A stretch of DNA of 23,586 bases from assembly GCA_034440375.1 (NCBI GenBank), contig JAWXBZ010000155.1:1-23586 (forward strand). Reading direction: 5' to 3'. The translations under genes and the position numbers were made by a program. The stretch is from Candidatus Eiseniibacteriota bacterium (GTDB lineage Bacteria > Eisenbacteria > RBG-16-71-46 > JABDJR01 > JAWXBZ01). The first letter of the stretch is position 1. Each line of letters begins with the position of its first letter. Positions 15,210 through 19,031 of the stretch are shown one piece after another. The notes below the pieces were generated by a model that did no database searches, was not told where the DNA came from, and was given only the letters and a program-made list of their open reading frames with translations.

Positions 15210-16595
15210 TCAGGGCCCGCCGTGCCGGATCTTCGGCCAGAAGCTCGTGAAGTCGAAGTCGGGCGTCTGGCCTGGCGTATGGCAACTCTGGCAGGTGGCC
15301 GGGCCCGCCTTGTCCAGGGGATGTGCTCCGGGGTTCTGGACATGCTCGCTGCCGGGGCCGTGACACGATTCGCACCCGACTCCCTGCAGGGCCCGGACGT
15401 CGGACGCCAGGACGTAGCCGTTCGGCTTCATGAATCCGACCGAGTGGCAATGAAGGCAGAGGGGATTGTTGACGTTGCGGCTTTCGACCATCGGCTCCCA
15501 GGCGTGCGCATGTCGGGTCTTCTTCCAGGTGGCCATCTCGGCCGCGTGGCAGCCGGCGCACGCCTCGGATCCCAGGTAATCGGGTCGCGAGGGATCTTTC
15601 TTCATCAGGCGGGAGCGTCGGAGCGCGGTTTCCTCGAGGTCCGACTTGACGCGGGCCACGAAGCGAATTCCCTCGTCACTCTCCGGCACCTTCTCGTTGA
15701 GCGGTGTGATGACCGGGGTCACGGACCAATCCTGCGTCTTTCTGTCCCGCCTTAGTTCGAGGAGGACGTCGTACTTGCCGCGCGTCCCCATCATGACGAG
15801 ATCGGCTGACGGGTAGTCGTAGTGTCCGGCCACGTCGTCCCCCTTCGCGGTGGCGAGGATCAAGTCAACATCCGGGAAGCGGTTGGCCACAAGGCGTCCC
15901 GCGCCGGGGCCGAAGTTGGCCAGGACCACCACGAGATCGGCCTCGGCCCGCGCCTTCGGCACAAATTCGGTGAGGGCCTCTTCGAAGTCGATCCAGTGCA
16001 CCTTGTCCCCGTTGACGCCGTCGAGAACCGCATACCGGGCCGGGCTCGATATGCCGATGACCGCCACCCTCGGGCCGGCCGGCGCCCCTCCCACCGTGGC
16101 CGTCAGGACCTGGTAGGGGGAAAAGATCGGCCGATTGCCGTCGATGCTCACGAGGTTGGCCGAAATCGTGCGGAATTTCCCCTCGCGCACCATCGCGAGA
16201 TAGGGAGATAGGCCGGCTTCCAGGTCCTCGTCGCCCACATTGACCACCTCGACCCCGAGGAGATCGAGTGCCCGCCGGGTGGCCGGCACGATGACATCGG
16301 TCTCCGAGGTTTTCATCGGAAACGCCCGCCCCGTGTCCAGGGACAGGAGGGGAACCTCCGGATTGGCCACACGCCACTGGTCATGGAGCCCGATGCGGCG
16401 GGCAAGCCCGCCGAGGCCGTCCTTGCAGCCGCATGGTTCCAGAGTTCCTTCCAACGATCCGGTGGCCCGGATGGCGAGCTCAGGCTTCGAACCGGGCTTG
16501 GCTCCGCGGCCACAGCCGGCATGGGGCAGCCAGGCGAAAAGGGCGAGCGCGAGCAGGAGAGCGGAGCGATTTGATATGCGGCGAGCGGTTGACAT
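15210..16595 (-). CDS. Secreted lipoprotein joining a 5'-nucleotidase/UshA-like metallophosphatase N-domain with substituted metal ligands to a C-terminal tetraheme cytochrome c
   Basis: Signal/lipobox-like N-terminus MSTARRISNRSALLLALALFAWLPHAGCG. Residues about 40-330 align block-by-block with the UshA N-domain (LLSLDTG ~ LLLSGGD; LDLLGVEVVNVGDEDLEAG ~ MNLVGYDAMAIGNHEFDNP; PRVAVIGISS ~ LKIAVIGLTT). The metal ligands are replaced: NDHHG becomes TGSLEG, GNHE becomes GDED, and ATHMG becomes ATAKG. A PCGC insertion is present. The C-terminal 130 aa carry four CxxCH haem-binding motifs (CAGCH, CLHCH, CESCH, CQSCH). Confidence 0.6.
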   Translation of the reverse strand: MSTARRISNRSALLLALALFAWLPHAGCGRGAKPGSKPELAIRATGSLEGTLEPCGCKDGLGGLARRIGLHDQWRVANPEVPLLSLDTGRAFPMKTSETDVIVPATRRALDLLGVEVVNVGDEDLEAGLSPYLAMVREGKFRTISANLVSIDGNRPIFSPYQVLTATVGGAPAGPRVAVIGISSPARYAVLDGVNGDKVHWIDFEEALTEFVPKARAEADLVVVLANFGPGAGRLVANRFPDVDLILATAKGDDVAGHYDYPSADLVMMGTRGKYDVLLELRRDRKTQDWSVTPVITPLNEKVPESDEGIRFVARVKSDLEETALRRSRLMKKDPSRPDYLGSEACAGCHAAEMATWKKTRHAHAWEPMVESRNVNNPLCLHCHSVGFMKPNGYVLASDVRALQGVGCESCHGPGSEHVQNPGAHPLDKAGPATCQSCHTPGQTPDFDFTSFWPKIRHGGP

Positions 16596-16606
16596 GGTGG
16601 AAAAGC

Positions 16607-18940
16607 CTAGCCGGATTTCTTTGCGGCGGTCAACCGCTCGATCAGCCTGGCAACGCCCGGATGGTCGGGCGCGAGCGCCCGTGCCAGAAACGCCTGTTCC
16701 CTCGCTTCGTCGAGCCGTCCCTGCTGTTCCAACGCCGCGGCCAGGCCGTACAACGCGCCAGGCTCGCGCGCCGCGACCGCCAGCGAGGCGCGGAAATCCA
16801 TTTCTGCATCCACCGGACGCTGCATCTCAAGCAGCAGGAATCCCCGATTCATGCGAACCCGCTGGTCGTTCGGCTGGAGCTGTATCGCCCGTCCGTAATT
16901 TGCCAGGGCCTCGTCATGGCGTCCCTGCCGCTGGTAGCAGACGGCTAGATTATCCCAGCCGAGCGCGTACCCCGGGTCGGCCGAAAGGAGTCGGACAAGC
17001 AGCGTCTCGGCCGAGGCATAGTCCTCCCGTTTCAAGAGCACGGCGGCGAGATTGGCCACCGCGGTGCGATCGGCGGGATCGGCGGCGAGCGCGCGGCGAA
17101 AGGCCGTCTCGGCCTCGACCATCCGCCCCTCCTTCGCCAGGACGATGCCGAGATTCACCAGGGAGCGCGCGTCGGCCGGTGCGTGCTGGTCATCGGCCGA
17201 CACGATGCCGGCAACCGGATCACGCCCCGGGGGTCGCGCTGCGTGCCCATCGAACAGGGTTCCGGGCTGGAAGGCCTCCGTCAGCGGCCGTCCCTCCAGC
17301 TCATCCGGCAGCGGGAGCCCAAGTCGTGCCAGTAATGTCGGCGCGATGTCATAGACCGTGGCGGAGGTGAGCGCCGCGCCCGGCTTGACACCGGGCCCGG
17401 CGAGGATCACGACGCCGTCGAGAAGATGCCAGCGCGCCGCATCGGCCTCTTCCATCTCGGCGCTCCCCGAAAGGCGGGCCTGGCCGGAGCGAAAACCATG
17501 ATCCGAGACAACCATGATCAGGGTGCTCTCGTCCGCGGCTTCGATGAAACGACCGAGCATCTCGTCCTGGCGGCGATACGCCTCGCGGACGGCGTGCCCG
17601 AATCGACGGCCGTCGTCCGCGGCCACGCCGGGCATCAAGGGGGGCGCAAAGGGCATGAACAGGTGGCCGGTGGCATCGATAAACTCGAAGTAGACGGCCA
17701 TGACATCCGGACGCCGCGTGCGATACAGCTCGAGCCCCAGCGCCGCGTAGCTCTCGGCCGTGGCCAGCGTGTGGATGAAGTTGTTGATTCGATTCCCCTT
17801 CTCGTAGCCGCCCCGCCGCGCCGCCTTGATCTCGGCGGGTGGGACGTCCAGGTAGCGTCGTACCATCGCGTCCGTTACGGCTTCGGACGCGACCGCAAGG
17901 CTTTCGTGACCCTCGAGGAGGTCCGCCGGATAGATCACGTCGGCGTCCGGCGTGGTGGCCGATTTTCCGGCGAAAGCCAGGAATCCGAATCGATCGGTGA
18001 CAATGAATCCTTCGATCGATTCGGCGGGCCAGGTGGCCAGCCATCCGATGATGCCGCTGGAACGCCCGGCGGACGATGCCCGATTCCAGAACGCGGGCAC
18101 GCGCCGAAGACGACTGGTGGCCGGCACCGACTTGCCGGTGGCCGGATCGTTGACCATGAAATCAAGAATGCCGTGGCGGGCCGGGGAGACGCCGGTAGCG
18201 ATCGTGGTCCATATCAGCGGCGAGAGGAGCGGTTCGATGGAGCGGAGCGGCCCCGACGCACCTCGTTCGACGAGCATCGAGAGCACCGGCAACTGCCCTT
18301 CGCTGCGAAGCCGGTCGATGATGGTCCAATCAGCGGCATCTATTCCGACGAGCAGGACTTTTCCGCGGAATGGATTTGCGCCGCCCGTGGGCAGAGCTTC
18401 CCTTCCGGGGGCGGCCAGTGTCGTCACTTCGATGGACAGGAGTCGGGCGCCCGATTCATTGAACGACGGTCGCATCCGCGTGGCCAGTGTTTCCGCCAGC
18501 CGGGGTCCGTCGAGATTCTCGATCGATTGCTCGGCCGCGGCCAGGCGGAGTTCGCTCTTCAGCAGGGGAACGAAATGACCTCGCGCATTACCGCCCACCG
18601 CCGCCTGGAATCGGGGGAGATCCGCGTTGCTCACCTCAAATCGAAGGGAAAGCGCCACGACGAGCGGTGCGCCCGCTGCGGTGAAAGCGCCGAATCGCCC
18701 TTCCGCCGTGTCGGCTTCGGCCGGAAAGGCGATCGTCATCGGCCCGGCAGGCCAGAGCGACATCCTTCCCGAGAGAGGAGAGACGACGTGTCGTCCGGGT
18801 CCGAGGACTCGCGCGCCGCTTCCGGAACCGACGACTCCCCGCTGTCCGGGCGGCACGGAGCGGATGGAGAGCACGAGTAAGACCGCCCCGGCGAGCCCGA
18901 CGACCAGTGCTGGAAGGATCCAGCGGGGGCGGCGACTCAT
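16607..18940 (-). CDS. Membrane-anchored tri-domain protein: SPFH/band-7-like domain + alkaline-phosphatase-superfamily type I phosphodiesterase/nucleotide pyrophosphatase (COG3379-like) + C-terminal TPR repeats
   Basis: N-terminal anchor MSRRPRWILPALVVGLAGAVLLVLSI. Then VPPGQRGVV...LGPGRHVV.P......FEV...LP...A... follows the SPFH N-terminal pattern (V.eGerGVv..fG.....l.PGlhf.iP). The middle domain has VLLVGIDAADW, SPLIWTTIATGVSPARHGILDF, MVVSDHGF and WHLLDGVVILAGPG...VYDIAPTLLARLGLPLP (AlkP-core metal/nucleophile motifs). The C-terminal roughly 200 aa are TPR (AETAFRRALAADPAD...YQRQGRHDEALANYGRAIQLQPND...). Its stop is 11 nt before the next gene. Confidence 0.6.
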   Translation of the reverse strand: MSRRPRWILPALVVGLAGAVLLVLSIRSVPPGQRGVVGSGSGARVLGPGRHVVSPLSGRMSLWPAGPMTIAFPAEADTAEGRFGAFTAAGAPLVVALSLRFEVSNADLPRFQAAVGGNARGHFVPLLKSELRLAAAEQSIENLDGPRLAETLATRMRPSFNESGARLLSIEVTTLAAPGREALPTGGANPFRGKVLLVGIDAADWTIIDRLRSEGQLPVLSMLVERGASGPLRSIEPLLSPLIWTTIATGVSPARHGILDFMVNDPATGKSVPATSRLRRVPAFWNRASSAGRSSGIIGWLATWPAESIEGFIVTDRFGFLAFAGKSATTPDADVIYPADLLEGHESLAVASEAVTDAMVRRYLDVPPAEIKAARRGGYEKGNRINNFIHTLATAESYAALGLELYRTRRPDVMAVYFEFIDATGHLFMPFAPPLMPGVAADDGRRFGHAVREAYRRQDEMLGRFIEAADESTLIMVVSDHGFRSGQARLSGSAEMEEADAARWHLLDGVVILAGPGVKPGAALTSATVYDIAPTLLARLGLPLPDELEGRPLTEAFQPGTLFDGHAARPPGRDPVAGIVSADDQHAPADARSLVNLGIVLAKEGRMVEAETAFRRALAADPADRTAVANLAAVLLKREDYASAETLLVRLLSADPGYALGWDNLAVCYQRQGRHDEALANYGRAIQLQPNDQRVRMNRGFLLLEMQRPVDAEMDFRASLAVAAREPGALYGLAAALEQQGRLDEAREQAFLARALAPDHPGVARLIERLTAAKKSG

Positions 18941-18961
18941 TCCGACCTACTTCGCCGGCCG

Positions 18962-18976
18962 TTGATCTGGTAAACT
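18962..18976 (+). promoter_or_regulatory. Candidate sigma70-type promoter for typA in the 91-bp divergent intergenic region (TTGATC ... extended -10 TGgTAAACT)
   Basis: TTGATC at 18962-18967 overlaps/abuts TG at 18968-18969 and TAAACT at 18971-18976 (TGnTAAACT, an extended -10-like element). Called by eye only; spacing to a -35 is non-canonical. Confidence 0.2.
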
Positions 18977-19031
18977 ATCCCGCTTCATTTCACCATGATA
19001 GTCGAACAGCGAAACCGTCAGGAGAACCTTT

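Follow-up and report, generated by a model that had tools for sequence, protein, structure and literature searches.

Two adjacent genes for envelope proteins, here called A and B, raise the question of whether they form one system or two. They lie in tandem on the minus strand of contig JAWXBZ010000155.1 from a Candidatus Eiseniibacteriota bacterium (assembly GCA_034440375.1), of which positions 1 to 23,586 were analyzed and are referred to hereafter as the window. Gene A (16607-18940; 777 amino acids, aa) codes for a membrane-anchored phosphohydrolase of the alkaline phosphatase (AlkP) superfamily, and gene B (15210-16595; 461 aa) for a lipoprotein-type protein in which a phosphoesterase-like fold is joined to a multihaem cytochrome. 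A sequence-only reading of the window had presented them as two novel proteins, the active and the dead half of a two-component extracytoplasmic module. The results described here point elsewhere. With a probability of roughly 0.72, A and B are two functionally independent envelope genes that are adjacent in one Candidatus Eisenbacteria clade, and we hold with somewhat firmer confidence that there is no A-B module at the level of the families and that B is the cysteine form of a UshA-like selenoprotein. It is improbable that the pair makes up a new enzyme system of two parts. Neither is a novel protein: both are new members of already known protein kinds, B joining the UshA-like CxU selenoproteins and A a widespread AlkP-TPR family.

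The best NCBIfam match of B is NF041198 (UshA_like_PCGU, "UshA-like (seleno)protein"), with a score of 231.4 bits, under the cutoff of 275. The clade orthologue from locus L163 scores 228 and a homologue from Verrucomicrobiota (P0024) 246; a selenocysteine (Sec) form from another Eisenbacteria locus, L027, exceeds the cutoff with 290 bits when U is written as C. As B falls below that cutoff, it is regarded as part of a related sub-branch and not as a strict equivalog. The match extends over both domains of the protein, profile positions 346-519 being aligned with B residues 288-450. Indeed, NF041198 proteins share with B a signal peptide, a 5′-nucleotidase-like domain and a C-terminal multihaem c554-like domain, as well as a P/T-C-G-[U/C] motif at the same position. 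They differ from B, which has Cys instead of Sec and whose below-cutoff score marks a diverged sub-branch, and from the window clade as a whole, in which most of the residual metal ligands are gone, including an Asp kept by many family members. In B the motif reads EPCGCKDGLGG, and its C-x-C or C-x-U pair is nearly invariant in 24 homologues. The family is the COG0737 "UshA-like" CxU selenoprotein, for which a GOS survey listed 76 Sec and 92 Cys forms (PMC2398784) and which is also found in later reviews (PMC9312934, PMC13188914). Although it has been surveyed since 2008, no function is assigned to it in the available portions of these three sources.

The Sec forms are found in the immediate relatives of the window. 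In the sister lineages L001, L002, L163, and L164, B is called as a protein of 354-392 aa preceded by a "gap" of ~300 nt or by a small open reading frame (ORF). Translated in the frame of B, this gap encodes a signal peptide followed by ..PCG*KEGLGG.. or ..TCG*KD.LGG.., and the TGA falls exactly at the codon for Cys57 of the window. Altogether, UGA occupies this site in nine loci from two phyla, i.e., L001, L002, L163, L164, L165, L013 (Acidobacteriota) and L022, L027, and L037 (other Eisenbacteria), and Cys is present at the motif in every other locus where the motif search located the site. L022 carries tandem B-family paralogues, at 3292 and 4745, one with UGA and the other with Cys. Approximately 20 nt 3′ of the UGA, a hairpin of the form GCC-N-CGCCC-GGC-GGGCG-GGC, with variants, is kept in the eight aligned Sec forms, and two of its base pairs show compensatory changes; it fits a bacterial selenocysteine insertion sequence (SECIS) element. 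In the window the codon is TGC, and the Arg codons CGC CGC break the apex of the hairpin (16380-16425, minus strand), which looks like decay of the putative SECIS element after replacement of Sec by Cys. The apex CCC-GGC-GGG, read as the Arg codons CGG CGG, is found in all Sec forms (e.g., L001:9962-10011); among the Cys-type relatives, it is broken in L166 (CGC CGT) and L168 (CGG CGC), and the Arg codons CGG CGG are intact in L167.

Because the in-frame UGA is taken for a stop, public gene calls give the Sec-type orthologues a length of 303-392 aa, or split off an ORF of 54-81 aa, and neither the signal peptide nor the motif of the active site is left in the annotations of these metagenome-assembled genomes. 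The shortest call, of 303 aa, belongs to the frameshifted L165 assembly. True lengths are ~456-462 aa with the signal peptide and the lipobox included, and the complete genes lie at L001:9788-11176, L002:9695-11065, L163:8190-9572, L164:12485-13873, and L165:~8440-9797.

Where Sec and Cys alternate at a single site, selenoproteomics takes this as the standard sign of a catalytic redox residue. Since Cys57 of B is Sec in its orthologues, the pseudo-enzyme label that the sequence-only reading had given to B is unjustified, even though the substitutions on which the label was built are real. Following a lipoprotein-type signal peptide that ends at Cys28 (aa 1-28, 16512-16595, minus strand), a site at which B homologues have L-A/S-G-C, the protein contains a demetallated 5′-nucleotidase/UshA-like domain (aa ~38-320, 15636-16484). 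In a profile search of the PDB, this N-terminal domain retrieved 2z1a (E=1.8e-27) and SoxB (3e-19), and over the 5′-nucleotidase/UshA, CpdB, and SoxB proteins, whose fold it shares, the E-values range from 1e-27 to 1e-14. Foldseek matches of the AlphaFold model (pLDDT 76) were YunD, SoxB, YfkN, and UshA, with E~1e-16. The ligands of the dimetal site that are expected of an active calcineurin-like phosphoesterase (DxH, GD, GNH[ED], H, GH) are absent from B. Alignment with 2z1a and UshA places S47 and E49 where Asp and His are expected, DTGR for DAGD and GDED for GNHE, and the later metal-ligand His motifs have likewise disappeared, with LANF for LSHL and LATA for GGHS. What B has instead, after the first strand of the fold, is the CGC/CGU motif, and Cys55-Gly-Cys57 (16425-16433, minus strand) is its presumed redox centre on the grounds of its alignment with the Sec forms. 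The position of this motif in the AlphaFold model relative to the old metal site and the haems was set aside, as the pLDDT is below 50 at residues 54-61.

The C-terminal part of B departs from the 5′-nucleotidases as well, a tetrahaem cytochrome standing in place of their substrate-binding domain. These ~125 residues (aa ~335-461, 15213-15593, minus strand) match PF13435 (E=1.9e-15) and the cytochrome c554 structure 1bvb (E=1.3e-21), and contain the four CXXCH motifs CAGCH (15546-15560), CLHCH (15444-15458), CESCH (15360-15374), and CQSCH (15279-15293), all on the minus strand. The four motifs are invariant in 24 homologues, as are His362, His418, and His458. Their spacing resembles that of Nitrosomonas cytochrome c554 (1BVB/1FT5), from which B differs in the fusion of the module to a demetallated phosphoesterase fold and in a context without hydroxylamine oxidation. 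The domain is tetrahaem cytochrome c554-like, and haem attachment is predicted from the motifs. B contains exactly 11 Cys, namely the lipobox Cys, the CGC pair and the eight that are assigned to haem binding.

If A and B belonged to one module, the two families would be expected together in other genomes, and their co-occurrence had been named beforehand as the point on which the proposal could fall. Starting from B, a pattern scan over one genome per GTDB species provided the best 80 B-family loci (24-32% identity), which belong to Verrucomicrobiota, Planctomycetota (including Scalindua and Brocadiaceae), Armatimonadota, Acidobacteriota, other Eisenbacteria, and a few others; at least 2.5 kb are available on both sides of B in 61 of them. 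When the neighbourhoods were searched by tblastn with the AlkP and SPFH domains of A, an A-type gene was found near none of these 80 loci. A weak AlkP match downstream of B in L080 proved to be an ordinary sulfatase (PF00884), and it was dismissed as co-occurrence because sulfatases are very abundant in Phycisphaerae and Planctomycetota. Starting from A, the best 80 metagenomic A-family loci (31-46% identity; at least 1.5 kb of flank downstream in 37 and upstream in 47) gave no B homologue near A in any case (0/80), even with 24 diverse B queries. L027 and L037, which are themselves Eisenbacteria, have a B homologue with 10-kb flanks and no A. In these two samples from other lineages the families do not co-occur, and their adjacency is confined to one syntenic clade, which speaks against the proposed module at family level.

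B has other partners in other phyla. On the one hand, in Verrucomicrobiota and Planctomycetota it closes an array in which a BatA/vWA protein, a ~750-aa protein, a ~970-aa transmembrane (TM) protein and a DUF4159 protein precede it (16-25 loci per component), and a thioredoxin-HEAT protein is often encoded after it (16 loci). On the other hand, a DUF1573 protein is encoded immediately upstream of B in Armatimonadota, Scalindua, and others (about 24 loci). DUF1573 is the OS_HP2 family of UxC selenoproteins, and these Ig-like neighbours have an invariant CxC, mostly CGC (23/24 aligned upstream proteins), which resembles the motif of B. Examples of genes directly upstream of B are L071:8334-9938, L031:9288-10001, L011:2184-4298, and L050:2668-6132. 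DUF1573, BatA, DUF4159, and thioredoxin-HEAT genes were also sought in the window, and none is encoded there; our literature search found no link between BatA/DUF4159 and the UshA-like family. The cytochrome module has a distribution of its own, for peroxiredoxin/redoxin (AhpC-TSA) proteins of 630-750 aa are fused to a module that is 40-44% identical to the C-terminus of B (P0022, P0023, P0027, and others). This suggests that the module may be a reusable haem unit feeding thiol-based redox enzymes of the periplasm, and its occurrence on peroxiredoxins is in keeping with a haem module at the service of redox centres that are based on thiols.

Taken with the neighbours in other lineages, these fusions provide a testable hypothesis for the function of the family, namely that a demetallated phosphoesterase scaffold serves as the frame of a haem-to-thiol/selenol oxidoreductase in the periplasm. 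For B itself, the most likely role is that of a haem-linked thiol/selenol redox enzyme whose work does not depend on A. The mechanism, to which we would give even odds, is that the Cys55/Cys57 pair would exchange electrons with the electron-transfer pool of the periplasm by way of the four c-type haems, and that B would be a thiol/selenol (disulfide or selenenylsulfide) oxidoreductase whose target is either a small molecule of the periplasm or a partner protein with a CxC. B would then have an enzymatic activity of its own and would not be the inactive partner of A.

Among the other explanations, the one that survives best concerns the chemistry of B, and it weighs against the mechanism just given: the CxC could bind a metal instead of undergoing thiol/disulfide cycling. 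The CxC/CxU would then be a site for metals or metalloids (e.g., Cu, Hg, As, or Se species), and B a haem-dependent reductase or detoxifier. Several CxU/UxC selenoprotein families do handle Hg or As, according to a table in PMC2398784, the CxC of B is paired with that of the DUF1573 protein, and an LTXXQ/"Metal_resist" gene stands beside A-B in L164. We nevertheless find this unlikely, as genes for metal transport or metal resistance are not among the conserved neighbours of B, and both the thioredoxin-HEAT neighbour and the peroxiredoxin fusions of the cytochrome module indicate thiol redox.

The distant loci leave the adjacency of A and B within their own clade to be accounted for, and it is here that a dedicated extracytoplasmic module, with the active phosphodiesterase A gated or sensed through redox by a dead, haem-bearing phosphoesterase-fold protein B, has its best arguments. 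A and B are adjacent in eight loci, namely the window and L166, L167, and L168, which are of the Cys type, and L001, L002, L163, and L164, which are of the Sec type; two further pairs are indicated by contigs of equal length (P0002/P0122 and P0004/P0123). All are confined to one clade of Eisenbacteria, in which five loci with typA at least 82% identical allow a clean comparison. Across this clade the whole block NYN-typA<>A-B-gcdH-PMT_2/TPR-DUF1684-DAHP synthase-trpA-trpB is collinear over ~20 kb. Since the entire block is syntenic, the adjacency was inherited with it and is not independent evidence of a link between A and B; judged by this gene order, it is inherited local synteny and not the mark of a co-evolving module. 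Furthermore, one member of the clade, L165, retains B without A: its order is typA<>B-gcdH-PMT_2, with ~200 nt from typA to B and no trace of A.

The spacing of the two genes calls for similar caution. They are on the same strand, and the junction in the window (gcttttccacc, 16596-16606, minus strand) measures 11 nt from the TAG of A to the ATG of B. The junction TAGGCTTTT..ATG recurs in the Cys-type relatives L166, L167, and L168, where the gaps measure 11, 11, and 9 nt, and this tight, conserved spacing makes it likely that A and B are co-transcribed in this lineage. In the Sec-type relatives, by contrast, the true gap is 79-188 nt, which suffices for a promoter of B's own. Nor is tight packing specific to A and B, as gcdH and the PMT_2 gene further downstream are ~27 nt apart and yet functionally unrelated. 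The sequence-only reading had been right in every coordinate, i.e., the 11-nt gap, the 106-nt spacer to gcdH and the 91-nt divergence from typA, and also in seeing no AGGAGG-like Shine-Dalgarno motif at the junction. That absence is not distinctive, however, because the motif is weak or lacking for most genes of the window.

Several observations weigh against the independence of A and B that we favour. The two genes are adjacent in eight of the eight examined loci that have both, despite insertions in the flanks, which leaves room for a lineage-specific functional coupling, and the junction is tight (9-11 nt) and conserved in sequence throughout the Cys sub-clade. L165, the sole case of B without A in the clade, is known from an assembly that is prone to errors and has frameshifts in its genes, and it carries moderate weight. 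The best 80 loci of each family are samples in which rare co-occurrence elsewhere could have been missed. In favour of the dedicated module stand also the predicted location of both proteins outside the cytoplasm and the TPR domain of A, which could be a protein-docking surface. It is all the same very unlikely in our view. To the 0/80 counts in both directions, the locus without A and the long gap of the sister lineages is added that B has a catalytic-type Sec/Cys residue and other conserved partners elsewhere. Equally slight is the chance of a narrower variant for the Cys sub-clade, in which the A-B spacer would have shrunk from ~80-190 to 9-11 nt at the time of the Sec-to-Cys swap, B would be translationally coupled to A, and the redox lipoprotein B would dock on the TPR arm of A and gate the phosphohydrolase by its redox state. 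Just as unlikely is an envelope-remodelling operon of A, B, gcdH, and PMT_2/TPR, in which A and PMT_2 would share one lipid-linked glycan as their substrate and B would move electrons. The four same-strand genes, with gaps of 11, 106, and ~27 nt, are kept together across the clade and A-family genes lie near PMT_2, GT2, RmlD, and DegT in other lineages, but the gcdH product is a FAD acyl-CoA dehydrogenase of the cytoplasm that has no role in the envelope, PMT_2 is near A in just 7/79 distant loci, where it is encoded on the other strand, and none of the other lineages scanned shows a link between B and glycan genes.

A, taken by itself, is consistent with the independent function that we favour. 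Its N-terminus, MSRRPRW followed by a hydrophobic helix of 19 residues (TM helix at aa 8-26, 18863-18919, minus strand), predicts an N-in membrane anchor with the remainder of the protein outside the cytoplasm, so that A through its anchor and B through its lipoprotein signal both appear extracytoplasmic by their sequence features, as had been proposed. Along the minus strand follow an SPFH/Band_7 domain (aa 28-175, 18416-18859; PF01145, 36.8 bits), a domain of the alkaline phosphatase superfamily (aa ~195-560, 17261-18358) and TPR repeats (aa ~585-760, 16661-17188) that match many Pfam TPR families. The catalytic domain matches PF01663 (Phosphodiest) with 116 bits against a cutoff of 23 (E=3e-33). 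Because a PDB profile search with full-length A was dominated by TPR matches, it was rerun with the AlkP domain alone, and the nearest solved relative is the phosphonoacetate hydrolase PhnA (3SZY), with a partial similarity in the N-terminal part (E=7e-7). The nucleophile S240 (18221-18223, minus strand) aligns with Thr64, the nucleophile of 3SZY, which is altered in the mutant 3T02. Residues D201, D204, S240, D422, H426, D480, H481, and H505, which make up the nucleophile and the ligands of a two-metal site, do not vary among 20 homologues with 32-61% identity, and the intact phosphodiesterase-type active site that had been attributed to A is supported by this conservation. The single Cys of A, C668, is not conserved.

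Proteins with this architecture are widespread. Among the PF01663/COG3379 "phosphohydrolase/phosphomutase" proteins with TPR, of which A has the full catalytic set, more than 100 homologues share its order of TM helix, (SPFH), AlkP, and TPR; they are called "alkaline phosphatase family protein" in Eisenbacteria, Krumholzibacteriia, Latescibacterota, and Acidobacteriota. The SPFH domain is the variable element of the family. The closest relatives of A (L166:6009-8003 and P0122; 75-78% identity) lack residues ~64-192 and with them most of SPFH/Band_7, so that the domain appears to be dispensable in this sub-clade or on the way to being lost. In other lineages, A-family genes are encoded next to iPGM, DegT, RmlD, GT2, and PMT_2, an envelope-glycan context, and A would be an independent periplasmic phosphohydrolase that possibly acts on an envelope glycoconjugate.

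The remainder of the locus is described here for completeness. Scans of 13800-19200 for consensus promoters and terminators returned zero matches anywhere, including the 91-nt divergent region between A and typA (18941-19031) and the 106-nt spacer between B and gcdH (15104-15209, minus strand), and are therefore uninformative on co-transcription of A and B. The promoter or promoters of A and typA are presumably located in the divergent region, where no sigma-70 consensus is seen. Scans for Rfam families and for tRNA genes had no match in the window. Downstream of B, on the same strand, are the gcdH-like acyl-CoA dehydrogenase gene (13928-15103) and a PMT_2 (GT-C) glycosyltransferase gene with TPR repeats (about 11782-13900), which together (11782-15103) accompany A-B throughout the clade by synteny. 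The latter is listed as an ORF of 720 aa (11782-13944) with a TTG start and a 17-nt overlap with gcdH; more likely, it starts at a GTG ~27 nt past the gcdH stop, with GGGGAG ahead of it. On the other side, typA (19032-20858, plus strand) is flanked by the genes for a 392-aa NYN-domain protein (20864-22042, minus strand) and a TPR/MalT-like protein (22285-23535, minus strand), and the NYN-typA pairing is conserved in most of the clade loci examined. Two relatives carry additional genes in this region: a VapBC toxin-antitoxin lies between B and gcdH in L163 (9641-10404), and the LTXXQ/Metal_resist gene of L164, which is Spy/CpxP-like, lies between typA and A (9431-9967).

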